Positions 1,131-39,289 of a DNA stretch of 39,289 bases are shown one piece after another; the first letter of the stretch is position 1, and every line of letters starts with the position of its first letter. Under the pieces are notes generated by a model. That model was not told the origin of the DNA. It saw only the letters and a program-made list of their open reading frames with translations, and did no database searches. This DNA is from Vicugna vicugna (lineage: Eukaryota): NCBI GenBank assembly GCA_013265495.1, contig MU057990.1, forward strand, positions 62,001 to 101,289, given 5' to 3'. Position numbers and translations under genes: made by a program.

Positions 1131-1260
1131 GGGGAGAAGGTACAGCTCAGTGGTAGAGCATGTACTTAGCATGCACAGGATCCTGGGTTCATTCCCCAGT
1201 ATCTCCATTAATACATACATATATACAAATAAACTTAATTACCCCACCTTAAAAAAGCTT
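1131..1260 (+). mobile_element. tRNA-derived SINE, Vic-1-like (camelid)
   Basis: ggggagaaggtacagctcagtggtagagc (A box)...gggttcattcc (B box), tail aaataaacttaattacccc; same family as the copy at 19246. Confidence 0.8.
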
Positions 1261-18200: not shown

Positions 18201-21200
18201 TGAGGACCATCCCATACTTGACCCAGTTCACCTTCTACTCTTTGGCTTCAAATATCCATGTCTAGGCTTTTCTATAACCCATGTCTTCCAAGGACCATAG
18301 GGTTTCACACCCTTTGAGACCAGAGGTCCTTGGGCCCCTGAATCCTGTGAATCGAAATGAAATCGACATAAATTGGCATGAAACTCTCAATATTTCCACC
18401 ATTGCCTCACTTTCTGGATTGTGTAGCCTCATAGTGAGTAGGAGTATGGACTATAGGGCCTAGCTGCCCTGATAGAAATCCTAGTTCTGCTGTTTGCTAG
18501 CTTTGTGACCTTGGAAAAAATACTTAACCTCGCTGTGCCTCAGCTCTTTCATCTGTAAAGTGGGGATAATGGTAGTACCTACCTCAAAAGGATTTAGTTG
18601 GGATTAAATTAATTAATACAGTTAAATTGCATAGGAATCTCCTAGCAAACAGTAAGTGCTCAATAATGCTCTCAGTATTATTATTATTATTACTATTGTC
18701 ATTATTAATATCTATGTTATCTTAATAGGTCTTGAAGGCACTGCAATTTCATACTAAGGATATAATATAAAGATATAGGACAGTTTTGCAGTTTTAACAG
18801 GCAGGGCATTTAGTAAAAAGTCAAGTTAAATAACATATACTTTATAATCTCTGGAACATCACTATAGTACTGCATTGTACAATAACTGTCCATAAAGGTG
18901 AGCCCTGTTTCTTCTTTATTAATTCAAAATTTCCGTCAAAAGTAGTTAACAGATTTCTATTTCCTAAAAGTCTGGGTCAGCTTGTGAAAAGTTGTTAGAC
19001 AATATGCTAAGTGTGAAATGTCAACCATCACTCTAAACTTTCCCTGTTCAGAGCATCACATGAAGACTTCATTGGGTTTTATAGTGGCTTTCTGATTTTG
19101 ATAGTCTATTGAAAAAGGAAGTTTGTTAAAAATTGTCTGCTCATGGCCTGCCTGAAATACCATGACTGTTTATGAAGTGTCTTTAATAAAGCCAGATACA
19201 GTTTGGTTTGAAAAAAATTATTTAATTTTAATTATTTAAGCACTAGAGGGGGAGGGTATAGTTCAGTGGTAGAGAGCATGCCTAGCATGCATGAGGCTGT
19301 GGGTTCGATCCCTGGTACCTCCACCAAAAGTAATAAATAAATAGATAAACCTAATTACCTACACCCCCCAAAATTAATTATTTAAGCACTAAAATTTACC
19401 TGGGGTGGATAAGTGACATTTAATTGCATCAATGAGCTACCATAACAATCATGTCACTAGGGTGGTAACCAGATTATTGCAGTTAGCAGGATTATCTCTC
19501 AAGCAGGAAATTAGGAAATTATTATTTTTTTCTATCAAGGGTCAATAACTACACAAATTAAGGCATTTGAAGCAACTTTTCTTTTTTTAAAAACATGCCA
19601 CCTTCAATCACCTTTTTTTAAAATTAGGAACTAGGGATTTGTGTAAGGAATAAAGTTCAGCTCCATATTAAGACCAGTTATTATCAAGAGGAGGAAAAGA
19701 GAATAATCAAAAGAGAATAATTTGATGTGTATTAATCGCTGTATATCTGGTACTTCACAATTTACACCATTTATAAATTTTATATAATGTTTTCATTGCA
19801 TGATCTAGTTCCTCAGAACAATCCTGCGTGGTAAGGCAATTATCATTAAACTCATTTTATAGATGAAGGCACAGAAAAGGTGAAGTAATTTCTCAAAGCT
19901 CACTGAGCTAAGTACATAGCATGTGGCTGAGCTTAGATTCAAACCCCTGCCGTCCTCCTTTTTGAAGCAGGAAGTGGGCAGAAAGGAACCAGAAGAGAAA
20001 ATACCTGTAGTTTTTGAGGTGTTGGCAGTGTTATTTTACCCTCATTCCACACTCTCATCTCCTTGTCTTTCAGATGTGGATGAGCTAATTATTTATGATG
20101 TCTTTACTGTACCATCCTAGAAACTCCATGTGAATGGAAATCTAATATCATAGAAATCATTCTCTGAGCTACAGAGATAGTGGCTAAAGCAGTGTCACCC
20201 TAACTGCTCTCTACCCTTAATCTAGACTGTGGAAGGTTTTCTTTCTTCCTCTCACCCCCGTTAAAAAAATAAATCTGAGAAGAAATTAATTAGACTAAAT
20301 TGGCTCCTGGGTGGAATCATTGCAATTGGTATTGTTAGAAATATTACGACTATTATTAACTCTCATTAGATAACCTATTTATATCTAAATGTCTCTTCAG
20401 TCTTGTGGTATTTAAATTTGTCAGTTAGTTTCCAAAATCTGCCTAATTCCTCACAGACTTCACGCAAAGACACGGTATAACAGGATATTTCCACGGTCTC
20501 TCATTCCTTTCTGTCAAGATATGAATGGTCTTTAAAGGACCTGCAGGCTATAATGAGCCAGAAATCTCTTCAGATCTTTTTCTCTTTGTTCCTTCTACTC
20601 TGTAATAAAAGAACAAAAGACCTACATTTTATGACTTTGTAAATTCATTTAAATTAGTTTCAGTAGGAGTGAATAATTTATTATAGCTGTAAAAGGAAGA
20701 AAATATGTGGTTGTCTTTCTTAAGTAATTCAGAATTTCAAAGAATAGCCCTATTTCTAGAGAAATTATGCATATGGCATAGGAATGGTTTTGTCCCTGGA
20801 AGTACAGCATTTGTTTTTTGGATAATAGCCAATGAAACCTGAAGAAACAATATAGAGGATGAATTTATAATATCTTTGATATTTATAGTAAGTGTGACAG
20901 GTTCATGTTGATGTCTGGGGACCACCAACCTGTTCTCTGTATCTATGAGTTAGTTTTGTTGTTGTTTTAACATTCTCTATTTAGATAAAAGAAATATTCC
21001 ATCAACCAGGGGCCATGGATTCCGCCTCAGGTGAAAATTACTACACTAAAGTTACCAGTATGTAGGAGGTCAGAAAAATATTTCACATAGATCAGAGTTA
21101 GTATTTTAATATTATATTTTATGTAGCTTCACAAATGGAAGGTGAATGTGTTCCTTGAGAATTTATTTCATTTTATAGAAAACTACTGTATACAATTTTG

Positions 21201-24200: not shown

Positions 24201-27200
24201 AATAGTGTCTATTAAGAGGATTTTTTTTGGTTCTAAGTAAGAAACTTATTGAGTACATACTACAAATTATTTACTTGATAATATTTGTTAAATTAAGCAT
24301 TACCTTTTTTTGGGTGGTCTGATATTAGAAATAAACAGTATAAGTTTTTTTCAGATATATAATGCCAATCTATGTAATCTGAATTTTAGTACTAGTGTAC
24401 TTTTATAAACACAGAGTTTTACCCTTTATGTCTGGGTCTAAAATGAATATGTTGACTTAGACTAGACTTTATAGTAACAAAATGTGATCTTAAATGTCTA
24501 TGAATGTAATTCTTACCCATGGTTTCCATCTTCTCCATGAGTCAATCATAATTTTGACACTAGACAAGAGAAAAAACTATATTAAGTTATTTGTCTTCCT
24601 AGTCCCCTCTCTCTGTTTGCTGTGGTAGTACAGAGAAGCACAGGAAAATGTTTAATTATCCATTTTTCTGTGATCTGCAATTGCAGTTTGTTCAAAGGGG
24701 TTCTTAAAGTGTTATCTTTCTTAAGTAGTAAGAAAGGACAGTGGCAATATAGATCTTTTCATAACATACTATGTACTTTCATTTTAGACCAAACTAGAGT
24801 CAGAACGAATACTAGCATCAGTGGGGAAGAAACCTCCCCAGGAAATTGGAATCAAAGTGAAAAATCATCCTGGAGGTGGTGTGTCCTTGACTTACAGTAA
24901 AAATTTTAGAAAACTATTGAAAGAAATCATAGGAGAAACTGCACCGAGACTGACAGAATTGAATACCAAAGAATTTGCTGGCTTCCAAGTAGGACTCTTA
25001 AACAAGGTAAATTGTGACATAAATAGCTTATATGTTTGAACTTGTCTGATACATTTATGTCTTTCATATTAATTTAGTTTTGAAATAATTACAATCGTGT
25101 TTTGGACTTCATAGCTATTAATGGACCAGTTTAGGAATTATCCGGCCAGCAGATGCCAATGGATTTAAATGATGTATTTGCGGGGTAAAATCTGTGAAAG
25201 ATGAAGGGGAGAAGGAACAGGAGTGAGCAGGGAGAGCCTTCAGATCCCTTGATCCTGTCCAAAATGTCCATAAAACATTTGGTGCACACCAAAAGGTCCT
25301 TGAAATGTGGCCCGATCCAAAACATATCCATGAGCATATTTGGTTCATGCCAAATGATTTTGGACAAGACCAAATATCAAGGACCTTTTGGTGTGGACCA
25401 AATGTCTCCATGGACATTTTGGACAGGACCAAATGTCTGCTTAACCTTCAGATCACACTGCTGAACTAGCACCTGTGAGAGGATGGGGGAAGGAAGGAAG
25501 AATGGGTATGAAGCACCTCAGACATTAGTATAGCTTCTAGAAAGTCTTGGCCAGCTCAACAGGAACCTCTGGCACCATGATTTCCCAATAGAGGAGGTCC
25601 ATGTTGGGCAGAACTGGCTAGCCCTAACATCCCCCTGACCATTCTCAGTCACTGGCTGGGGGCATCCTGGGAAGAGCATGGCCCCGGCTCAAATGCTGCA
25701 GCAGATCCCTAAGGTACTGCAGCTGGAGGTGCTCGGCTAACTGTCCTCCTTGTAGGATTTAGCCATTGCTTCCTGGGTGGACGTCCCAGCAGGTCACCTC
25801 CATGGCTGCCCAAGGAATACATCTAGATTATGAACAGTGGACCTGCAAGGCTGTCACAGGCATAAATCTCAGGATTTCATGTTTTAGTTGACATTCAAAA
25901 AAGGATATCCCCAGTGGCTTTAATGCTACATGGGTGTATTAGAATTCAGAATAGGGCCAGCAAAGGCAAATTTTCCACTGGGAAAATTCTACTGTATTTA
26001 GCTTTAATGAATATCCCTCTCTTCACAAAGATTTTAAGAGGATTAAGAATTACATTTCTATATTAAGAGCCTCAGGAATAACAGAAATTGTTTCATTTCA
26101 AATAGGATTTGAAACCTCAGACATATAGAAATGCTTATGATATTCCACGTAGAGGTCTTTTAGACCAGTTAACCAGAATGAGATCCAATCTGCTGAAAAC
26201 GCACAAGTTTATTGTCGGACAAGATGAAGGTAAGTGAATGTAGAAGTATTTTTTGGTGATAGGAAAATGTCAAACCTGACTTACACGAAGATGTTTATTG
26301 CATAACGAGTAAGTTATTTTGTAATCCTTTAATATTTATAATGCCTCTTTTCCCTGAATCCCTTCATCTACCAGGGCACAATTTATTGTTCTCGGGTTTA
26401 AGAGAAAGTGTACGTTCATCAGCACATATATTACACCACGCATGCTTTAGCTCTTGTAAGTCTCAAAACAGCCCCATGAGATAGACACTGTTTTATGCCC
26501 ATTTTATGGACATTGGAACTGAGAGTGAGCACTTTAGTAGTTTGCTCAGGTTTAGAGAGTGGGAAAGTGGCAAAACCTAGGTCTATCAGATTTAGGAAAT
26601 TGCCCACCCCAACACTATACCACCCAGCCTACTTGTCATGATTTCAATCTGAATTCCTCATTTACATGAAGAAAATGAACCTGATATTGTCCAAGATAAT
26701 TGGTGATGGTGTGCAATTCTCCTTTATTCCATTCTGTTCACTTTAAACAAGGTCATTTGTCCATTAAAATGAGCAACTCTTAGCCTGGCCAAACTCCTGA
26801 AATTATACACAAAGTTTTTTGGAGGGGAGGGAAGGAACTTTTCTAGAAAGAGAGTCCATCAATTTAATCAAATTTTCCAAGAGGGTAAGGCCCACTAACC
26901 AAGGTTCTCTGGATGATAAGAGAAACCATGGAGCCCAGACTCTTCAAAACACAGAAAATATGGTGGTTTGAGTTGGGATGGTGGTATAAAGAATGGCAGC
27001 CCATTCTCAAACCTGGTATGATAAGTAAGGGAGTTGTTATTAGCCTAGTGGTTTGAGCTTGTAGGCGGTAGTGATGGTAGACTGAGTAATGAGTAGGATG
27101 AAGAGAGAAGATTTTAGATCCTAGAATACTAGATTTGAGATTTTAGACTATCAGTTTCCAAGATACACAGTGCTAACCCAGACTATGATCATGTCCTCTG

Positions 27201-30200
27201 AAAAGGACCATACCCTTCAACTGTATACCATCTGTTTCTTTTCCGGTGATTTTGCAGATTCCCTTCATAGTGTTCCAGTTGCACAAATGGGTAACTATCA
27301 GGAATATCTTAAGACATTGGCTTCTCCACTTCGAGAGATTGATCCTGATCAACCAAAAAGGCTACATACTTTTGGCAATCCATTTAAACAAGATAAGAAG
27401 GTAGGATACTTGTTTCTATGTCTGCCTGAATAGTGATATTCTTGCTATAGTTCCTTTCTTCTTGGCAAAATATGTATAAATCAGAGGTTCTCCTTCTGTT
27501 TGTGTAAAAGATAAAATATGACGCCAGGGTTCTTTGTGAATGGAAAGTGGGAGCCTCCTGATGCAAGAGTGTGTTGGTTAAAAAAATGATAGCTGACATT
27601 TATTGAGCACCTAGTAGCAGCAAATGTTTTAAATGACCACAATTAATGCTCACAACCATTCTGCAGATGAGTGTTACTATCTGCCCTCTAATATGAAGAA
27701 ATCAAGGCTCACGTGGTCAGTGGCTTACCTTGAGTGACACAGCTGAGAAGAGCCAGGATTTGAACCCACATCTTTCCAGCTCCAGAGTCTGTATTTGTTC
27801 CCACCTCTACACTCCAATTCCTTTAATATTGAGGTCACCATTTATTTCCTCTGTTTACATTATTCAGATTTCTAGTGCTCTATCTAGACAGTGATGAAGT
27901 ATTCCTCTTGAAATTTAAAGACTAGGTAATGTTGCTTTATCAGATTGTCCTACCAGAGATATAAATGTGAGGGGTGTGTGTGTGTGTGCGTGTGTGCGTG
28001 CGTGTATGTGTGTGTGTCTCTGTGTGTATATATGAGAGATATACTGATTGAGCATATAAGCATGGAGACAAATGAGGATTATATCTGCATTCATGGAGGA
28101 GACCATTGTTATTAAGGTGCAGACCATGCAGTAATGTCTTCTGTAACAAAACTAGAAGGAAAGATATTCCACTTCACTCAAATCCTCAGTTAACTGGAGT
28201 CTTTCTTAATCTTTCTGTGTCTTGGTTTCCTCATTTGTTGCACTGGAGATAATTATTACACCTAACTAACAGAACTCGGTGGAATATTAAGTTAGTACAT
28301 GTATACCATTTAGAACATTACCTGACATGTAGTACATACTCAGTGAATATGTTTTCCCCTTTCTGTACTGTTTTGCTTTGGGCAATGCTTTGGAAAAGTA
28401 ATTTGTCATGATTTTATTCAACTAATGGGTTAGCCTTGGATGAGAACAGCTTTTAGTTAACCTATACTGCTGGCTCTCATCTTTTATATACCCGCCAGGA
28501 GTAAAAAGCCCTCTCCTTCCTTGTTGAACATCCCCGAGGTGGACATACTTGAATCTCTGTGAGGTTGCTGTTGGGAGAATGACGTTTTCTATCTATCTGC
28601 CCTTCACCATTGACATGCAGCATTCTGTACAGTGATTATCAATATTTCCTAATGATGAATATAAAGCACAAAAGCACACAAAAGGGAATTAGTTCCCTTA
28701 CCAAGGGTTGATGCAAAATGACTGATACCTCTTCAGAAAGCTAGCTGTAGGTTTATTCCCATTTTGGTTTATGAGAGTTGCTCATTCCCCCAAGCTTTCT
28801 GATTAATCATGATTGATTTATGTTTGACCTTGGACAACACCTTCCATCTTAGTTTCCTCCTTGTTCCACTTAGATTGAATTAAAATTGAGTAGCATTTTC
28901 TGTGTGGGGCATGGCACATCTTTGGCCCATGATTAAGGTCGGTATTGCTGATGTAAAGCATGATTGTATATGCATATGGAGAGTGCTTGCAGTGTTGTCT
29001 TCAATGGAATATGTTCATTGATGTTTTTTAGGGAATGATGATTGATGAAGCAGATGAGTTTGTAGCAGGGCCACAAAACAAAGGGAAACGTCCTGGAGAA
29101 CCCAGCAGTCCTCTGTCATCTAAGAGAAGGCGGAGTATGTCCCTGCTGTTGAGAAAACCACAAATACCACCTACTGTAACTAACCATGTGGGCGGAAAGG
29201 GACCACCCTCAGCCTCGTGGTTCCCATCTTATCCAAACCTCATAAAACCCACCCTTGTACATACAGGTATAGAGTAGTGGTTGTGATTTCCTTATGGCTC
29301 CTAGAGGATTAAGACACTAAACAATTTTCTTTTCATTTGTATTCATTTCTTTTGTATTTGGTTTTTGTTCACTAAGTAAGCCATTATTAAATCATCGATG
29401 TGGTAGGTACCAAGGGCCCTGTGGGGAGCAGAGACCCTGTTTCAAGGATCTCAATCTATATGAGGGGAAGATCTCTACTTACATAGTAATTAGTGCAAGA
29501 TGGAGAAATGGAGAGAAATGTGCGTGTTTGCTTTGTCAGGGCATGGCATAAGGAGGTGCAGCCATTTGGAGTGGCTGCATGAGTCAGAATGATGAAGCAG
29601 GTTCCCGAGGCTGTAGGAGCAAATGGGCTCAATAAGAGGCTGGGTCTACATATGATTTCTGTGCCCTCATCTCCCTTCCATGCTCTAACTCTGTACAGTC
29701 TAGCCCAGCCTTCTCCATGCCTCTGAAACAGGTCTCATCAAGGTCCCCAGGGTCAGCCACGAGTTGCCATTACTTCCTAGCATCTTTGGACACAGTTGTT
29801 CACTCTCTCCTACATGGAACCTTTCTTGGGTTCCCAGACACAACAAACTCCTGGTTCTCTTTTGCCTTTAATAGTGACCCCTTTTCATCCTCCTTTTCTG
29901 GTTTCTTGCCTTCTTTCCCACCTCTAAATAGCATAGGGACTGAAAGCTTGATTCTGGACCCTCTCCTCATCACTGTACCCCCTCCCTAGATGATCTCATG
30001 CAGTCCCAGGGTTTTAAATAAGATTTACATTTCAACAACTCAGATATTTATATTTATACTAAACTACAACTGGCTCCAAACTCCAGACTCAAATTTAGCT
30101 ATGGACATGGTAACATGTCCAACATGGACATGGACAACAGAGAGAGCCTTCAGATCTAATGGCCACCACCTCTGTTTCCTCAGAACTTTTGAGGTAGAGA

Positions 30201-32336
30201 GGAGGGAGTTTGAGGGGGGCACATGTAGGCTGGTGTCAAGCTCAGTAGAGCATGGCATTTTATAGATAAATTACAGAAATCATGAGATCAAGTGAGACTT
30301 TCTGCTTTTCAGCTGATAAAGCACAAGCTGCAGCTAAACCCTCCACTCCAGGGAGCTGAGAATGTTTATTAGCTGTATTGTCTTACTTGGTTCCGTATGT
30401 ATTCATGGTGCCATGATGAGAAGAAAGTAGTTTTTCTCCTATTGGCTTCCTGAGCTCAATTTGAGGGGTCTCAGACTCCACCTGGTACATCCCCTTGCTT
30501 TATAAAATAATTTCCTCAAACCTGAGGAACACTGGAATCTACCTATGGGTTGCTATAATGCACCTGCCTCATATCTCAACTTCTTAATTTGGTTTCCAGA
30601 TGTTACTGTCACTCACGATGTCCATGAGGAGAAGATGGAAAATGGTCAGATCTCACCTGATGTCTTCTTGTCAAAATCTGCTGCACCAGAGCTTATGAAT
30701 ATGGCAGGAGATAGTATTCTACCCAACCAGTTGGATCCTGTGTCTGATGACTTCACTAGTCTCAGGAAAGATGCCCTTATCCACAAACCTGGTAGTAATG
30801 CACTTATAGGAGGAACCAAAAACTGCAGCGTCTCTGTAGATGATCAGAAAGTCTTAATAACATCTGCTTTGGAAACTGTGCCAAATACGTTGCAAATAAC
30901 TCCTGCTATGGCGCAAGGAATCAATGCTGATATAAAACATCAGTTAATGAAGGAAGTTCGAAAATTTGGACGAAGTAAGTAGTGAAAGAACGTCAATCAA
31001 TAATAGAATGGGAGGTCCATCTCATTTTATGATTCAGAGGAGATTCAGGCTATCTCTTAAGGTGCATTTTGGGGAAGTATTGGGTTTTCACATAATTTAA
31101 AACGATTCCTCTTGCTTCAGCTAAAAATATGCAATACCCCTTTTTCTCTTTTTTTTCCCTCTTTCTTATTGTAATAGTTTCCTTTTGCTGCTGTAACAAG
31201 GTAACCACAAACTTTGTGGCTCGAAACTGTATTATCTTATAGCTGTGGAAGTCAGATCTGAATTATTTTCAGCGAGCTAAAATGAATGTGTTGGCAGGCC
31301 AACATTCCTTCTGGAGGCTGTAGGAAGAATCTGTTTCCTTCACTTGTCCAGCTTCTACAGGCCACCCGCATTCCGTAGCTCATGGTCCCTTCCTTCATCT
31401 TCAAGCCTGCAATGTTAACACTTTCTCTTTTCTCTATCTTCCCATCCCAAGATCCATAATTTAATAACATCTGCAGAGTAAAGTCTCTCTTGCCACACAA
31501 GGTAACATGTTTACAGGTTCCTAGAATTAGAACATGGACAACTTGGGGGGCATTATTCAGCCAACCACATTTGGGTAGTGTTTACGGAGTTTCCCTAGCA
31601 GATATGTACAGGTGTTTTGATTTGAGTGTTTCGAATACGAACTAGTACCAACTTTCCACACACAAAGAATGATTACTGAGGATGCCTAATGACTGAATGT
31701 TATTTTTCGTGCATATTTTAATACTAATTTTTTAAAATATCTTCAGAGTATGAAAGAATTTTCATTTTGCTTGAAGGAGTGCAAGGACCTCTTGCAGTCA
31801 AGAAACAATTTGTTGAATTTACCATCAAGGAAGCCGCAAGGTAGGTGTAAAGAGGAACTCTTCGTTTTTCTCTTTCTTTGTTTAAGCAGTAGGGCCCAGT
31901 GCAAGACAGGTGGAGGAATTCATGCTGACTTGCTTTCCTAAGCCCTGGTCCTCATTCAAGGTTATGGCTGTCTCTGGAGGCATTTAGATATCATCTGTGT
32001 CCAACTCATTCACCCAAGTCTGTGGAGCCTTCTAGGCGTTTCACAGTCTGAGGTGGGCTTGGGCTCTCAGTTGGCACTGTTGGTTTTTGCTAAGCCCTAT
32101 CTTTACATGAAGATCCATTTTCTATTTCCCATGTAGATTGTCAGTTCCACTTTGTGGAACTGCACTTTGCCCATTATAAGTGCTTCAAGGACCTTTTGGT
32201 TAATAAAATTTCTCTTCATATTTTTAGGTTCAAAAGACGGGTCTTAATTCAGTACCTCGAGAAGGTTCTAGAAAAAATAGATTCCCACCACCTCATCAAC
32301 AGCGTTAACCACATAGACAGCAGATCATCATGTTAA
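6068..32336 (+). CDS. INTS6L: INTS6L (DDX26B) multi-exon coding region, 5'-incomplete: 16 exons, 835 aa in window
   Basis: Exons join in phase with GT-AG boundaries and no internal stop; lengths 150+90+184+129+164+153+133+95+111+219+124+143+235+375+94+109=2508 nt. N-terminal vWA-region peptides ([48 protein letters not shown]) and the C-terminal INTS6/SAGE1/DDX26B/CT45 domain match the INTS6 family. Paralog-type residues ([19 protein letters not shown]1-like segment) indicate INTS6L rather than INTS6. Confidence 0.95.
7033..7122 (+). CDS. INTS6L: INTS6L coding exon (likely exon 4)
   Basis: ttttag|GGG...GAG|gtgaga; [30 protein letters not shown] (not in ORF track). Confidence 0.95.
7359..7542 (+). 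CDS. INTS6L: INTS6L coding exon (likely exon 5)
   Basis: tttatcag|CTT...GGAG|gtattg; [34 protein letters not shown]...MCEVTG. Confidence 0.95.
7818..7946 (+). CDS. INTS6L: INTS6L coding exon (likely exon 6)
   Basis: tacag|GTCGC...GAAG|gtacag; [42 protein letters not shown]. Confidence 0.95.
8783..8935. mobile_element. hAT-Charlie MITE (Charlie4z-like)
   Basis: ctgtggttcctgacc...cctttgagaagct...gacccttctccctagaaaaatg...aatttcaggggttc...tttaaaaacacctg. Confidence 0.65.
9141..9300. mobile_element. Second Charlie4-like MITE
   Basis: caagagttcttaacc...gagattctgatcaaagcta...cagaaaaatgcacat...cccctgaagcc...catggacctcag; similar to the copy at 8783. Confidence 0.6.
10176..10339 (+). CDS. INTS6L: INTS6L coding exon (likely exon 7)
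   Basis: ttctag|ATGGA...CTA|gtaagt; [54 protein letters not shown]. Confidence 0.95.
12492..12644 (+). CDS. INTS6L: INTS6L coding exon (likely exon 8)
   Basis: tttttag|CCT...CAG|gtactt; [51 protein letters not shown]. Confidence 0.95.
13032..13300 (-). mobile_element. Short retroposed insert with 20-bp TSD, AATAAA and degenerate poly(A)
   Basis: tggaagta(c/t)aagatattttt at 13012-13031 and 13301-13320; T-rich tract 13027-13063; tttatt 13068-13073. Confidence 0.85.
13825..14145 (+). mobile_element. Ancient L1M (L1MC/L1ME-type) 3' end
   Basis: gttctatttcttgatctgggtgctgatgacat...ctttgagctgaatacttataattcatgcacttttttgaatgtatgtttatatttcaatgaaa. Confidence 0.75.
14490..14606 (+). mobile_element. 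MIR/MIR3 fragment
   Basis: ctggattctaaccctagctctgccacccactatgtggtcttgg...ttagatgttctctaa...aaattctatgac. Confidence 0.6.
15236..15298. repeat. (ATATA)n then (TA)n microsatellite
   Basis: atataatata repeated, then tatgtatatatatata. Confidence 0.95.
15400..15510 (+). mobile_element. L2 3' terminus
   Basis: gcaccagtgcctggcttataataggctcctcaataaatatttattggatgaaaaatgaataaatg. Confidence 0.7.
16007..16139 (+). CDS. INTS6L: INTS6L coding exon (likely exon 9)
   Basis: tctcag|GTA...TTAG|gtaagt; [44 protein letters not shown]. Confidence 0.95.
17213..17930. mobile_element. Mosaic of old L1 fragments: minus 3' end (about 17213-17290), plus ORF2 piece (about 17291-17432), minus ORF1/5' piece (about 17440-17930)
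   Basis: ttttattttgagataattatagattcacatgc (L1M 3' end, antisense); [25 protein letters not shown] (ORF2, sense); minus-strand ORF1-like ...[23 protein letters not shown]. Confidence 0.7.
18421..18680 (+). mobile_element. MIR SINE, near full length
   Basis: gtgtagcctcatagtg...ctttgtgaccttgg...ctgtgcctcagctctttcatctgtaaagtggggataatggtagtacctacctc...agtaagtgctcaataa. Confidence 0.88.
18980..19217 (+). pseudogene. 5'-truncated processed pseudogene (3' UTR end only), resembling HNRNPA3 mRNA
   Basis: AATAAA 19185-19190 then A7 at 19211-19217; ctctaaactttccctgttcagagcatcacatgaagacttcattgggttttatagtggctttctg matches my recollection of the HNRNPA3 3' UTR (needs BLAST). Confidence 0.7.
19246..19373 (+). 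mobile_element. tRNA-derived SINE, Vic-1-like, with 18-bp TSD
   Basis: A box tagttcagtggtagag, B box ggttcgatccc; exact TSD ttaattatttaagcacta at 19228-19245 and 19374-19391. Confidence 0.9.
19740..19950 (-). mobile_element. MIR SINE
   Basis: cctcagaacaatcctgcgtggtaagg...cattttatagatgaaggcacagaaaaggtgaagtaatt...agattcaaaccc. Confidence 0.7.
21370..21464 (+). CDS. INTS6L: INTS6L coding exon (likely exon 10)
   Basis: cttgcag|ATGAC...TTA|gtatgt; [31 protein letters not shown]. Confidence 0.95.
22458..22568 (+). CDS. INTS6L: INTS6L 111-nt symmetric (phase 0-0) exon (likely exon 11), probable cassette exon
   Basis: cttatag|CCA...CAG|gtagta; [37 protein letters not shown]; weak donor. Confidence 0.92.
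24788..25006 (+). CDS. INTS6L: INTS6L coding exon (likely exon 12)
   Basis: ttttag|ACC...AAG|gtaaat; [27 protein letters not shown]...[12 protein letters not shown]. Confidence 0.95.
25125..25812 (-). mobile_element. ERVL solo LTR (LTR40-like), interrupted by a palindromic insert
   Basis: agggagagccttcaga...acctgtgagaggatgggggaaggaagg...cagtcactggctgggggc...gcagctggagg...cacctccatggctgccca follows the recalled LTR40 consensus in antisense. Confidence 0.7.
25247..25446. mobile_element. Palindromic foldback/MITE-like element with 8-10 bp TSD
   Basis: Inverted arms 25251-25322 and 25358-25430 (about 62/73 matches by hand alignment); direct repeat ccttcagatc at 25237-25246 and 25445-25454. Confidence 0.8.
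26106..26229 (+). CDS. INTS6L: INTS6L coding exon (likely exon 13)
   Basis: aatag|GAT...GAAG|gtaagt; [41 protein letters not shown]. Confidence 0.95.
26420..26630 (-). mobile_element. MIR SINE
   Basis: tctcaaaacagccccatgagatagacactgttttatgcccattttatggacattggaactgag. Confidence 0.7.
27258..27400 (+). CDS. INTS6L: INTS6L coding exon (likely exon 14)
   Basis: tttgcag|ATTCC...AAG|gtagga; [47 protein letters not shown]. Confidence 0.95.
27590..27815 (-). mobile_element. MIR SINE
   Basis: agctgacatttattgagcaccta...gaagaaatcaaggctc...gtgacacagctg...gagccaggatttgaaccca. Confidence 0.8.
27974..28032. repeat. (TG)n/(CG) alternating purine-pyrimidine microsatellite
   Basis: gtgtgtgtgtgtgtgcgtgtgtgcgtgcgtgtatgtgtgtgtgt. 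Confidence 0.9.
28180..28352 (+). mobile_element. MIR SINE
   Basis: cttaatctttctgtgtcttggtttcctcatttg...ggagataattatta...cctgacatgtagtacatactcagtgaatatg. Confidence 0.7.
29032..29266 (+). CDS. INTS6L: INTS6L coding exon (likely exon 15)
   Basis: tttttag|GGA...ACAG|gtatag; [43 protein letters not shown]...LVHT; basic NLS-like KRRR. Confidence 0.93.
29650..30110 (+). mobile_element. L2 fragment
   Basis: gcatctttggacacagttgttcactctctcc...ttgggttcccagacacaacaaactcctggttctc...ccctagatgatctcatgcagtcccagggttttaaata. Confidence 0.7.
30600..30974 (+). CDS. INTS6L: INTS6L coding exon (likely exon 16)
   Basis: tttccag|ATGTT...CGAA|gtaagt; [16 protein letters not shown]...[18 protein letters not shown]. 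Confidence 0.93.
31170..31569 (-). mobile_element. MaLR solo LTR (MLT1C/D-like)
   Basis: TG...CA termini; tgctgctgtaacaa...ccacaaactttgtggct...ttccttctggaggctgtaggaagaatctgtttcc...ggggggcattattcagccaaccaca. Confidence 0.85.
31747..31840 (+). CDS. INTS6L: INTS6L coding exon (likely exon 17), C-terminal INTS6/SAGE1/DDX26B/CT45 domain
   Basis: cttcag|AGTAT...GCAAG|gtaggt; [30 protein letters not shown]. Confidence 0.95.
32228..32336 (+). CDS. INTS6L: INTS6L last coding exon to stop codon
   Basis: tttttag|[39 protein letters not shown] (TAA 32334-32336). Confidence 0.95.
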
Positions 32337-33299: not shown

Positions 33300-34100
33300 G
33301 ATTTAAACTTCAAGATGGTACTCACAGAACTGAGTGATATTGCTGAAAGTGGTGTAGGGTACTCTGGGGGTTAACCCCTCTCCAGAAACACTGAAAACAC
33401 AGGGGAAAAATGATTGGGGTCAAATTTATTGGAACGCTGGAAGACAGTCAAAAGTTTACATCAGCCAAGCGAATGTTGAATCAGGAGAAAAGCCATTGAA
33501 ATGTGATAGAATTTTGTGGCATTTTAACTTATTCTTGCCCCTGCCCCACTTCCACCCACCCCTCAGTGTAGCAGTGGCCTTGAGGATATCGGCCTGCATT
33601 TCAAGTGTGAGTTCCTGGCTCTGGAGGGAGGAGAGTAGACCTTATTCCCAAGGATTGTGTTTGTTTAAACCTGTCTAGAGGCCTCCCTGAAGGACTGACC
33701 AAGGGGGCTGATTGCTTTTCTTTTGCTGAACTCCAAACTCTCTTAGGGTGGAGAAGCAGCTACATGAAGGATGTTCCTCAAAGACATTGAAAGGCAGTTG
33801 AGCAAGCTGCTGATGCCTATGGCAAACAACAGACATGCCAAAATTCTGGAAAGAGAAACTGGGGAGTGAATATTTTGGAGAATGAGGGCTTTGAAATGTT
33901 CCCTTGTATACCAGGGGATCTAGAAAACCATGTGTGCCCAGGGCAGAACTCAATCAGAAAAGACTGGAGAAGACCATAAGATTTCACCTCTAGCTAATCT
34001 TTAGGTTGAGCATAATAATGGCTACAACTAGTCAGAAGATGAATAGGGAAAAAGAGGACTTGAACAACACTGTTTTTTAGACACCTATGAAAAACCCACA
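33300..34100 (+). mobile_element. Ancient L1M 5'-end fragment with a short ORF2-like piece
   Basis: ggaacgctggaagacagtcaaaagtttaca...gttgaatcaggagaaaag...ttttgtggcattttaactt resembles old L1 5' UTR; agaggacttgaacaacact is ORF2-like. Confidence 0.55.
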
Positions 34101-34102
34101 CC

Positions 34103-35215
34103 GAGGAGGAGGCCAAGATGGCAGAGTAGTAGGACACACGTAGCTCACCCTCTCCCACAGATACACCAAGACTCACATCTACAGACCCACTCAGCCAACC
34201 AGAGCACCTGCAGAACTCCGACAGAACATTGTCCTCTTCAAAAGACAAAGACACCAAAAATCTGGTAGGAGAAAGGAAAAAGAAAGGAAGACGAAAAGGC
34301 AAAACAGTGCGGGACTGGTCCCGGGGGAGAGAGCGGCAAAGGAGGACTGGCGCTCGTTTGCTGGGTCTCCCCCTCTCCAACGGAGAGGCCAGCGGGACAG
34401 AGGGGGAGCCTCTGAGGCTCGGATCTGTACGGAGCAGCCCTTGACTGATAGAACTGGGTTGAATGGGCACAGAGGGTCCCTGCGACACCCAGCCCGAGAC
34501 CTGCTGGGAGCTGGGGGCTGGGACAGGCTCCTGAGCCGGGCGGAGGACGGAGATGGCTGCGCTGAGGCAGCCCTGGGGGACTGCAGGGTGCTGCACAACG
34601 TAGATGAATGGGTGCACAGGGACGAACCACCTGGGCCCTCCATGAAACAGCACAGCTGATGTGCCGGGGCGGGAGAGGGGGGAGGGTGCATACCCCCATC
34701 TCTGAAAACCCAGGGAAGGTTTTCGGTGAGGAGAGGCGGGACTCAAGCACAGCCGCCATGTCCTCCAGCGCATGGCACCCAGGTGGGGGCGGGGGCGAAA
34801 CCTGAGTCCGCGCCTGGGGGCTCGGCAGCCTCGGAGGCCAGACAGTGACTTGTTTGCAGCCCAAGTCAGATAGGATCCTTCCGCCCTAGCGCCTCGCAAA
34901 GTTCACACCGCCAGAACAAACAAGGTGCTGAGTTTGGACACGGAGCAGGGACGGGGCTGATCCGCGGTCTTCCCGGGGCCTCCTGCAGAGCGCCGACCTG
35001 GGGCGGAGCGCGTGGCGGTGCGGAGCTGCGGAGCGACCTGCGCCTGGAGACCGCGGGTGGCCCCCCGCCGGTCTGGCAGGAACGCTGTGCTGGGAGGGGG
35101 CGCGATCTGCTTGCCAACAGGCACTGGGAGCAGCAGAGAGGAGGGCTCCAACAGAGGGCCTCGGAAACAACATGCCGAGCTAGCGAAACGGGTCGAAGAC
35201 AGAAAGACTTCTCAT
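34103..35215 (+). promoter_or_regulatory. L1 internal promoter: YY1 motif and CpG island
   Basis: CAAGATGGC at 34114-34122 (YY1 site typical of L1 5' ends); dense CpG and GC boxes (ggggcggg, ggggcggag) at about 34300-35200. Confidence 0.8.
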
Positions 35216-35259
35216 TAAGAGCACACAGTCTCCAGGAGAACACCCCCTGCTCCCCTCCC

Positions 35260-36370
35260 CCTTTTTTTGATCTGTTTTTGCCTGTTGTATTTTCTGTTAC
35301 TTTCTTGATTTTTGCTTTTTAAACAGTTGTATATCCTCCCAGTTTTGGTCCCTTTTGAATTTTTTTTAAATGGTATTGTTATTTTGAAATATCCACGTCG
35401 TGTCATTATTCTCTCTCAGTTTTGATCGCCTGTTGTTGATTGTACACAGGTTTCAAATGTGTTTTTTTCTTCTTTTCTCCTATTTTGGAGCTTTTTGGGA
35501 GACATCTCAACCCGACTGCTGTTCTGCTTCAACTTACTCTTCAGTTGTTCATTGTACACTGTTTTCAGGCCGTTTTTCCCCTCCCCTTCTTCAGAATTCT
35601 CTCTTTATCATATTTTTTTTATCTGTTCTATTTTTTATTACCTTTTTGATTTCTACCTTCTGGATGGTTGTGTATGCTTCTAGTTTTGGTCCCCTTTTTG
35701 AATTTTTCTTTCTAGACAATTGTGTGTGCTTCTAGTTTTGATTCCTTTCGGGTTTTTCTCTTAAAGTAGTTATATTGTTTTTTAAAGAGAATCCACTTGA
35801 TAGAATTTTCACTTCTTTTGGGTTTGATCTCCTGTTGTTGATTGTAAATGGGTTTCAGGTGTCATTTTTGATCTTTTTTCTTTTTGGAGGGTTTTAAACA
35901 ATATGTCATCTCGAATGCTACTCTAATTCAAATTGCTCTTCTATAATTGACTATACACTATTTTCAGGCCTTTTTTTCCTCCCTTCTCTTAATATTATCT
36001 CTTTATCTTTTTTTATCTGTTCTATTTTCTATTACCTTTTTAATTTCTACTTTCTAAACAATTGTATATGCTTCTAGTTTTAATTCCTGTTTAAATTTTT
36101 CTTTTAAAGCAGTTATATTATTTTTTTAAAAAAATCCACCTGATTTCATTTTCATTTCTTTTGTTTTTGATCTCCTGTTATTGATTATAAATAGGTTTTA
36201 AATATCGTTTTTGGATCATTTTTCCTTTTTTTTTAAGGGTTAAAAAAAAAAGACGTCCCAACTCGAAAGCTAGTCCGATTCAAATTGCGCTTCTATAATT
36301 GATTATACACTGTTTTCAAACCTTTTTTTCTCCCTTCTTTTAAATTTCTCTTTCTCTCTCTCTCCTTTTT
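35260..36370 (+). repeat. About 3.3 diverged T-rich tandem monomers (about 340-400 bp) in the L1 5' UTR
   Basis: tttgatc(g/t)cctgtt(g/a)ttgatt recurs at about 35421, 35823 and 36166; tacact(g/a)ttttca at about 35555, 35954 and 36305. Confidence 0.85.
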
Positions 36371-36489
36371 TTATTTTTTAAATTGTATTGCTACATAGGT
36401 ATTAAATAGATAAATAAATAAACTCCTTTAAGGACCACAATAAATAACTGATACTCCATAAGCCACAGTGCCAGAGACATAGGAGCAAG

Positions 36490-37383
36490 ATGAAGAAGCA
36501 GAGGAACCACTCCCAATTAAAAGTACAAGAGAAATCCCCTGAAATAGCGATCAATGAAATAGACACTGATAGCCTACTAGATAAAGATTTCAAAAAAGGA
36601 GTTATCAAAGTACTGAAGGAACAAAAAGAGATAGTGTTTAGAGATATAAAATATGTCAAAAATGAAATTGAAGCTAGAAAGAATAGCCAAGTAGTATTGA
36701 TAAACTCATTGGCTGAGATGAGAACAGATCTAAAGGCTGTGCAAAGCAGGCTAGATAATGCAGAGGAACGAATTAGTGACCTAGAAGACAGGGCAATAGA
36801 AAGCACCCAATCAGAACAGCTACAAGACAAACAAATAAAAAACAAATGAAAGCAACATAAGGGACCTATGGGATAATAGAGAGCGTGCCAGTCTTCGCAT
36901 AATAGGGGTCCCAGAAGGGGAAGAAAGATCAAAGGGGATTGAAAATGTTTTTGAAGAAATCATGACTGAAAACTTCCCAAACTTACAGAAGGAATCAAAT
37001 ATTCAAGTACAGGAAGCTCAGAGGGTCCCAAACAGAAAGAACCCAAATACACCCACACCAAGACATATCATAATCAAGATGGCCAGAGTCAAGGATAAAG
37101 AAATGATCCTAAAGGAAGCAAGAGAAAAGCAAAGAGTGAGTTACAAGGGAACCCTTATAAGGCTCTCAGCTGATTTCTCTACACAAACACTACAGGCCAG
37201 AAGGGAGTGGCAAGACATATTCAAAGTCCTGAATGAAAAAAAGATGCAGCCTAGGATACTTTATCCAGCAAGGCTATCCTTTAGGATAGAAGGAAACATA
37301 AAGAATTTCACAGACAAGAAAAACTACAAGAGTTTAGCAACACTAAACCCATGCTAAAAGAAATACTGAAAGGTCTACTCTAA
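36490..37383 (+). pseudogene. L1 ORF1p with two compensating frameshifts
   Basis: MKKQRNHSQLK..., coiled coil, ENFPNL, TPRHIIIKM, RREWQDIF, YPARLSF; +1 shift at about 36845 and -1 at about 37320 (both in A-rich runs); restored stop TAA 37381-37383. Confidence 0.92.
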
Positions 37384-37790
37384 ATAGAAAAGCAGCAGGA
37401 TGCTACAGAAATGAGAAACTCATAACTGGAAAGGTGATAACTCATGAATTACAAATAAAATAAATACAAAATTATAAAAGAAGACATACAAATCATTGAG
37501 AGTGGGAGAGGGAGGCAGGAAAATACAGATTTTTTTTCTTTCTTTCTTTTTAAAATTTTTTGTTCTCGGTAGGATAGGTTTGAGATCATGTTACTATCAG
37601 TTTAATAAAAACAGTTACAGTAATGGGCTAATAGACTTACAAAAAAGGGTAACCACAAGCCAAAAACTTACAAGGGAGTCACAAAACTAAATAAAATCCA
37701 TGATAATACAAAGGAAGATTACCAAACCACAAAATGAAGAAGAAAGGAACAAGGAGGAAATACCAAATCAACTGCAAAGATAAGTTCAAA

Positions 37791-39289
37791 ATGGCAATAA
37801 ACACACATCTATCATTAACTACTGTAAATGTTAATAGACTAAATGCTCCAGTCAAAAGACATAGAGTGGCAGACTGGATAATAAAGCAAGAACCTTCAAT
37901 ATGCTGCATACAAGAGACCCACTTTGGGGAGAAGGACATACATAGATTGAGAGTGAAAGGATGGAAAAGGATATTCCATGCAAATGGAAAAGCCAAAAAA
38001 GCAGGTGTTGCAGTACTGATTTCAGACAAAATAGACTTTAAAACAAAGGCCATAAAGAAAGATAAAGAAGGACATTTTATAATGATTAAAGGAGTGATAC
38101 AAGATGAGGATATTACACTCATTAATATATACGCACCCAACATAGGAGTACCTAAGTCCATAAAACAATTACTAACAGAGATAAAGGGGGATATTGATGG
38201 CAATACAATCATAGTTGGAGATTTTAACACCGTATTAACATCACTAGACAGATCTTCCAGACAGAAAATAAACAAGGCAACAGAGAAATTAAATAATACA
38301 ATAGAAATTAGATTTGGTGGATATTTTCAGGGCATTACACCCCAAAAAAATCGGATATACATTCTTTTCAAATGCACATGGAACATTTTCCAGGACTGAA
38401 CATGTACTTGGGCACAAAAGAAACCTCAGCAATTTTAAGAAGATAGAAATTATCTCAAGCATCTTTACTGACCACAATGCCATGAAACTAGAAATCAACA
38501 ATAGAGAAACAAAGAAGAACAAAAGGAAAGCATGGAGATTAAACAATATGTTATTGAAAAAACAATGGATCAATGAGGAAATCAAAGCTGAAATTAAANN
38601 NNNNNNNNNNNNNNNNNNNNNNNNNNNNNNNNNNNNNNNNNNNNNNNNNNNNNNNNNNNNNNNNNNNNNNNNNNNNNNNNNNNNNNNNNNNNNNNNNNNN
38701 NNNNNNNNNNNNNNNNNNNNNNNNNNNNNNNNNNNNNNNNNNNNNNNNNNNNNNNNNNNNNNNNNNNNNNNNNNNNNNNNNNNNNNNNNNNNNNNNNNNN
38801 NNNNNNNNNNNNNNNNNNNNNNNNNNNNNNNNNNNNNNNNNNNNNNNNNNNNNNNNNNNNNNNNNNNNNNNNNNNNNNNNNNNNNNNNNNNNNNNNNNNN
38901 NNNNNNNNNNNNNNNNNNNNNNNNNNNNNNNNNNNNNNNNNNNNNNNNNNNNNNNNNNNNNNNNNNNNNNNNNNNNNNNNNNNNNNNNNNNNNNNNNNNN
39001 NNNAAATAACATAGAAATACAGAATATCATATGAGAATATTATGAAAAACTATATGGAACCAAACTGGATAACCTAGAGGAGATGGACAAGTTTCTGGAA
39101 ACATACTGTCCACCAAGACTGAACCAAGAAGAAACTGACAACTTGAACAAACCGATCACTAGAAATGAAAGTGAAATAGCAATAAAAACCTCCCTACAAA
39201 TAAAAGTCCAGGACTGGACAGCTTCACCGGGGAATTCTACTAAACATACAAAGAACTCATACCAGCCCTTCTCAAACTCTTCCAGAAGA
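37791..39289 (+). pseudogene. L1 ORF2p N-terminal part (APE endonuclease to Z region), disrupted
   Basis: NVN, QETH, NIYAPN, GDFN and TDH motifs; frameshift at about 38305, TGA 39032-39034, frameshift at about 39188, TAA 39241-39243. Confidence 0.93.
38599..39003. other. Assembly gap (405 N)
   Basis: Run of N within L1 ORF2. Confidence 1.

Follow-up and report, generated by a model that had tools for sequence, protein, structure and literature searches.

A palindromic insert of 200 bp (25247..25446) lies in the window, the whole 39,289-nt stretch of vicugna DNA analysed here, and it is one copy of a multi-copy dispersed family with varied flanks. With a probability of roughly two in three, it represents an old, now dead, miniature non-autonomous Mutator transposon of the Phantom/Tm1 foldback type with subterminal inverted repeats, a placement made by comparison of its build with known systems. 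The preliminary description of this DNA had already suggested a non-autonomous Mutator/foldback transposon. The suggestion is supported by the multi-copy nature of the family, the varied flanks, the target duplications of 8-9 bp and the modular arms.

The insert is situated in an old repeat at approximately 25140..25812, a putative LTR40-like solo LTR. The motif CCTTCAGATC, described earlier as duplicated on both sides, was found at both places (25237-25246 and 25445-25454). The duplication is thus real, and of the proposed length of 8-10 bp the simplest value is 8 and not 10, with TTCAGATC at 25239..25246 and again at 25447..25454 on the plus strand; 9 bp is a less simple alternative. The element was taken to end at 25446, since other copies also have the CC of 25445-25446. 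By chance, 8 matching bases would stand at two fixed borders with a probability of about 2e-5. The left arm (25251..25322, plus strand), a subterminal inverted repeat of 28-31 nt modules, and the right arm (25358..25438, minus strand), with 2.8 copies of a 31-nt unit, enclose a central part (25323..25357) with a small inner hairpin, where longer members have more modules or an AT-rich interior. The hand count of the arms was reproduced, as 62 of 73 columns are identical between 25251-25322 and 25358-25430, and so were the two perfect 19-mers (25253-25271 with 25410-25428, and 25285-25303 with 25377-25395) and the tandem units, with a measured spacing of 28-31 nt. Terminus L (25247..25251, plus strand) reads CCTTG (family form CCTTGCAG), and the first module after it is short of about 11 nt. 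Terminus R (25438..25446, minus strand) reads inward GGTTAAGCA (family form GGTTAGCA), with one extra base here. The left end was earlier thought to lack about 10 terminal bases; instead it has a different terminus, and the loss is internal. The long hairpin was borne out by an RNA fold of -107.2 kcal/mol (z -13.25), which none of 200 shuffles equalled in stability, and by a DNA fold of -65.7 (z -12.49). Judging by the duplication, the element plausibly postdates the LTR, although an empty site was not seen.

A search of sequencing runs with 25040-25860 as query gave 24 runs under five coded organism labels, and 86-96% of the query words are present in 14 of these runs. Contigs of four of the 24 runs (DNA runs X2, X3 and X9 and RNA run X15) were aligned to 25130-25570 at 80% likeness. 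The insert region was covered by 183, 196 and 186 contigs in X2, X3 and X9 respectively, and by 20 in X15. In the three DNA runs, the depth was 8.6-13.4 in the right flank, corresponding to about one copy of the host repeat, against peaks of 967-1622 within the insert. The rise and fall of the depth (25250-25444) match the insert borders. The resulting ratio of 94-127 is not a copy number, because both ends and several modules pile up on one arm; the family is estimated at dozens to a few hundred copies. Joints which skip or go back 37-129 bases represent members with other module numbers. The right junction of the window copy is present in X2, X3 and X9 and both junctions in X15. Among the best 15 of 19 joints listed, all from close relatives, no empty site was found. 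In X3 and X9, the loose ends before 25394 included 7-8 contigs with a common AT-rich sequence on the inner side of the arm (agreement 0.68-0.80), which we read as the interior of a longer subfamily and as the most promising lead towards an autonomous member.

No second copy was found within the window, and BLAST against phage and plasmid sequences gave no match. Collections of metagenome, viral and prokaryote sequences were scanned for the motifs, which returned 41 loci. None of these aligned over more than 28 bases and the single metagenome match has no module structure, so they were rejected as chance matches. An unrelated metagenome contig (L001:3734-3939) contains a pair of 92-nt inverted repeats which are 92% complementary, likely another MITE. 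Within the window, 32184-32200, just before an exon, matches the module 25288-25304 exactly over 17 bases on the opposite strand, an isolated and probably chance match. Another intron of the same gene shows an exact 15-base match (30142-30156) to the target site and its preceding bases (25232-25246), perhaps also by chance.

The contigs distinguished two different ends of the family. At the R end, AACC follows position 25441 in 19, 19 and 21 contigs, after which the sequences disagree (agreement 0.46 among the loose ends listed, with 252 more existing). At the L end, CTGCAAGG follows position 25437 in 13, 12 and 12 contigs, again followed by disagreement (0.52-0.53 among the loose ends listed). 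Read inward, R is GGTTAGCA-GACATTTGG and L is CCTTGCAG-GACATTTGG; the inverted repeat begins about 8 bases inside, and the outer 7-8 bases differ between the ends. A second set of copies came from peptides produced by gene-caller read-through, 10 + 1 of them recovered with the translated insert, 7 by cluster look-up and 77 by a profile search of 1.84 billion representatives, which gave 87 distinct peptides overall. The insert was matched by 86 of the 87 in tblastn. L and R were placed on these peptides by degenerate back-translation and not on DNA. Under a strict rule, the two ends are of opposite type, one L and one R, in all nine two-ended copies (p 0.002). They measure 209-699 nt, the 699-nt member being spanned by peptide P0057. 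Under a relaxed rule, which lets internal modules in and for which 20 of the 87 peptides were removed as same-locus, opposite ends were seen in 20 of 27 copies. A C outside the GG is compatible with 16 of 23 R ends, but C or T also stands at 17 of 26 L ends. If this C belongs to the element, the duplications would become 7-8 bp and the R end, CGGTTAG, would be like the A1 motif of Tm1 at 6 of 7 positions.

The flanks of the strict copies point to a duplication of similar length in the other members. A 9-bp duplication left 19 forced mismatches between the flanks vs 29.2 in shuffled flanks (9/5000), an 8-bp duplication 22 vs 29.3 (84/5000) and a 7-bp duplication 24 vs 30.1 (60/5000), and lengths of 2-6 and 10-12 bp gave no signal in 5000 shuffles of the same copies. 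For five of the nine, 9 bp is a better fit than 8 bp. When each copy was allowed whichever of 8 and 9 bp suited it better, at most one forced mismatch was left in seven of the nine, compared with a null mean of 0.9 (0/5000); this pair of lengths was one of seven tested and was chosen after the single-length results. In the relaxed set, 8-9 bp fits 11 of 25 copies (null 3.9, 2/5000).

Among the known systems compared, Tm1 of root-knot nematodes has the build closest to that of the window element. As given in the text of Gross and Williamson 2011 (PMC3169594), Tm1 has the end motifs CGGTTAA and CCTACCC, then GGA, a variable number of 14-nt modules, duplications of 8-10 bp which are mostly 9, and MITE-like copies, while its autonomous copy encodes a Phantom MULE transposase. 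The features of a Tm1-type MULE recur in the family here. It has asymmetric 7-nt ends outside the inverted repeat, one GGTTA-like and one starting with CCT (GGTTAGC-AGA and CCTTGCA-GGA), as observed in 9/9 strict and 20/27 relaxed copies. It also has foldback inverted repeats with variable tandem modules, a duplication within 8-10 bp (8 bp at the window locus, 8 or 9 in 7/9 strict copies) and MITE-sized copies below 0.5 kb. Its copies are dispersed with unrelated flanks, as expected of any DNA transposon. It differs in the length (about 30 nt vs 14 nt) and sequence of the modules, in its mammalian rather than nematode host, in duplications of 8 and 9 bp vs mostly 9, and in the autonomous partner, which is seen in Tm1 only. 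Muta1 of Aedes aegypti is a foldback MULE in which subterminal repeats bind the transposase, more repeats give more excision, and insertions leave 8 or 9 bp duplications (text of Liu and Wessler 2017, PMC5499845). The window family shares with it the subterminal repeats, the 8/9 bp duplications and non-autonomous derivatives with unequal repeat numbers; Muta1 differs in its symmetric ends, a palindromic 10-bp motif, 12-bp repeats and its activity. Points against Mutator include the module length of about 30 nt vs 12-14 nt in Muta1 and Tm1, the occurrence of foldback arms in several superfamilies, as the text of PMC3169594 describes, and the report of Dupeyron et al. (PMC6446971) of no convincing vertebrate MULE transposase. 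Neither a transposase nor an autonomous copy came to light (weak evidence; 5715 longer candidates, none scored). Since a transposase was not found, we infer Mutator membership indirectly and treat the element as Tm1-like in its working.

By analogy with Muta1 and Tm1, a longer autonomous partner would supply transposase in trans, which would bind the arm modules. After cutting at the end motifs, the enzyme would link the element to a target site opened with a stagger of 8-9 bp, and repair of the gaps would create the target duplication. Short deletion derivatives of about 200-700 nt would then have spread, and the window copy would have inserted into the older repeat in an intron of an INTS6-family gene and later decayed.

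It is considered unlikely that the element is a foldback derivative from some other superfamily, named (P/Galileo-like, hAT or Merlin) or unnamed, with a convergent likeness to Tm1. In hAT and P elements the terminal inverted repeats reach both ends, and Merlin has symmetric terminal inverted repeats with a GG start at both ends and an 8-9 bp duplication. The two ends here are not inverted repeats of each other, as P, hAT and Merlin need, and the first 7-8 bases differ between them, a feature not expected of hAT or P. The Merlin option raised in the preliminary description therefore falls, since the termini are different motifs, one starting with GG and the other with CC, and the inverted repeats are subterminal. 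Merlin1_HS is alike in the GG at one end and in the duplication of 8-9 bp, and differs by its symmetric terminal inverted repeats vs the second end starting with CC here. On the other side, foldback arms occur with both P and MULE transposases (in the text of PMC3169594), hAT duplications are given as 8 bp (in the text of PMC5499845), and 7-8 bp would be possible if the element were one base longer.

The main rival to the Mutator placement is Zisupton (KDZ), with a non-autonomous element mobilised by a KDZ transposase that leaves 8-bp duplications; it appears improbable. Zisupton is similar in its subterminal inverted repeats, which Bohne et al. reportedly described in the founding paper. Its 8-bp duplications, as stated in the text of PMC12730594, have the same length as the one at the window locus. 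This length is fixed, whereas 8-9 bp is seen here and five of the nine strict copies are better with 9 bp, the boundary being uncertain by one base. The variable module number and the Tm1-like end motifs favour a MULE. An established mammalian presence of Zisupton is not given in the texts consulted. In the table of PMC5753468, available without its bold marks, Repbase lists no human trace, and the sole mammalian report found is a RepeatModeler label in a bat, overlapping EEF1A1 exons (text of PMC9446614). Chapaev, with its 3-bp TWA duplication, was excluded. A local rearrangement by template switching or foldback can practically be dismissed, and so can an artefact of assembly: the unseen empty site and the imperfect ends of the window copy would agree with such an origin, but a local origin is refuted by the dispersed copies (roughly 190 contigs in each genome, their flanks varied, with junctions in X2, X3, X9 and X15), and the recurrence of the junctions across DNA runs and the RNA run rules against an artefact.

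Several lines of evidence bear on the host range and age of the family. Two tRNA-derived SINEs of the window (1136-1260 and 19249-19370, Rfam tRNA matches) are presumably of camelid type. About 11 distinct peptide loci carry what we take to be translated ruminant-type Bov-A, BovB or CHR retroposons, within the element in the case of P0007. In P0007 and P0011-P0013, the element is presumably interrupted by a ruminant Bov-A SINE and would thus be older than the SINE there. The reverse transcriptase of P0059 was confirmed, the one such case among 16 peptides scanned. Matches in the ESM Atlas fell into unnamed clusters with no usable taxa, and the cluster look-up likewise returned no host names. 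Several peptide pairs have common flanks with 66-78% peptide identity, and each such pair may represent one insertion in two species. The 27 listed pieces from other loci diverge from the window copy by 13.1%, which corrects to 0.072 per lineage. From the 32 pieces listed, with 711 more existing, 5 of the window locus itself had been removed, and the same loci recur across runs. At the camelid rate of 1.3e-9 in the supplement of PMC10162687, this corresponds to about 55 million years, close to the 64 million years given there for the camel-pig split. We infer that the family spread at about that time or earlier, when the even-toed ungulates radiated or nearly so. The 80% likeness filter makes this age too young and CpG decay makes it too old. 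A more specific history, in which the camel-ruminant ancestor acquired an undescribed Phantom/Tm1-type Mutator family horizontally at about 55-65 million years before present and longer members keep a fossil transposase, is put forward as a tentative possibility, somewhat doubtful. The horizontal-transfer survey of PMC10162687, in its available text, gives Tc-Mariner, hAT, piggyBac and Helitron events for bats and few events in other mammals. In sheet ST2 of its supplement, the four camelid rows show DNA transposons of at most 50 My at 0.9-1.0% of the genome vs 0.04-0.07% in the 7 other cetartiodactyl rows listed. The family described here is too small for this camelid excess, which may reflect a slow rate, mislabelling or another camelid burst.

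This kind of element is already known in worms and mosquitoes; what surprises is to meet it in a mammal, where it is hardly documented. Ricksha, a mammalian element filed under MuDR, has symmetric ends with another motif. Ricksha provides the only human MuDR entries of Repbase in the texts of PMC5753468 and PMC6446971, and its status as a MULE is doubted in the latter. There, in the text available, Dupeyron et al. 2019 report no convincing vertebrate MULE transposase, ask for re-examination of the mammalian MuDR entries, count three placental MuDR entries in Repbase with Ricksha cited, and call a reported horse Phantom unconfirmed. A published description of the family was not found in the searched literature, mostly non-subscription texts, and four 14-letter motifs of the element were absent from all searched paper texts. 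In the dromedary RepeatMasker table, the names MuDR, MULE, Ricksha and Merlin do not appear among the rows listed, and at least 15 INTS6L rows were not placeable on the intron of the insert, so that the table speaks neither for nor against a catalogued copy. For each camelid species, an automated survey gives 1-3 'Mud' families and 1-4 Merlin families of MITEs (text of PMC8605555), and its libraries may contain the window element. The Zoonomia curation covers 248 mammals, and a consensus for the family may well exist there. The chance that some catalogued consensus already covers the family is about even. If a Dfam or Zoonomia consensus exists, the gain is reduced to classification. A mammalian family with Tm1-type ends makes the question of vertebrate MULEs testable, its end motifs being a probe for the autonomous partner. 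If the reading with a fossil transposase is true, this would be the first clear spread of a MULE in a mammal, contrary to the published doubt. If the copies are common to even-toed ungulates, they would serve as insertion markers for the radiation and also form a reservoir of long RNA hairpins in introns.

The exon upstream of the insert (24790..25006, plus strand) belongs to an INTS6-family host gene, the family being assigned from other exons, and INTS6-family Pfam domains were identified in two of the three exon pieces scanned; the paralogue named earlier, INTS6L, is a candidate for it. The insert was described earlier as lying about 240 nt downstream of an exon, and the distance measured from the GT donor at 25007 to its start is 240 nt. 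Regarding the double-stranded stem proposed for the pre-mRNA, it forms in silico and persists in a 571-nt fold which includes the splice donor; a clear excess of editing was not seen, as the RNA run X15 has 19 A>G places vs 14-17 in the DNA runs (all copies pooled, contigs). No Rfam family matched the hairpin at the gathering threshold (best 57 bits vs 144). The RNA stem gave no sign of a function and is most probably a by-product. Elsewhere in the window, about 34090-39289 is occupied by a decayed L1. Its 5' end is GC-rich, both ORF1 and ORF2 carry stops, and a gap of 405 Ns lies at 38599-39003. Before its ORF1, it shows three tandem units of about 340-400 bp (35270-36380) which are 70-80% alike.
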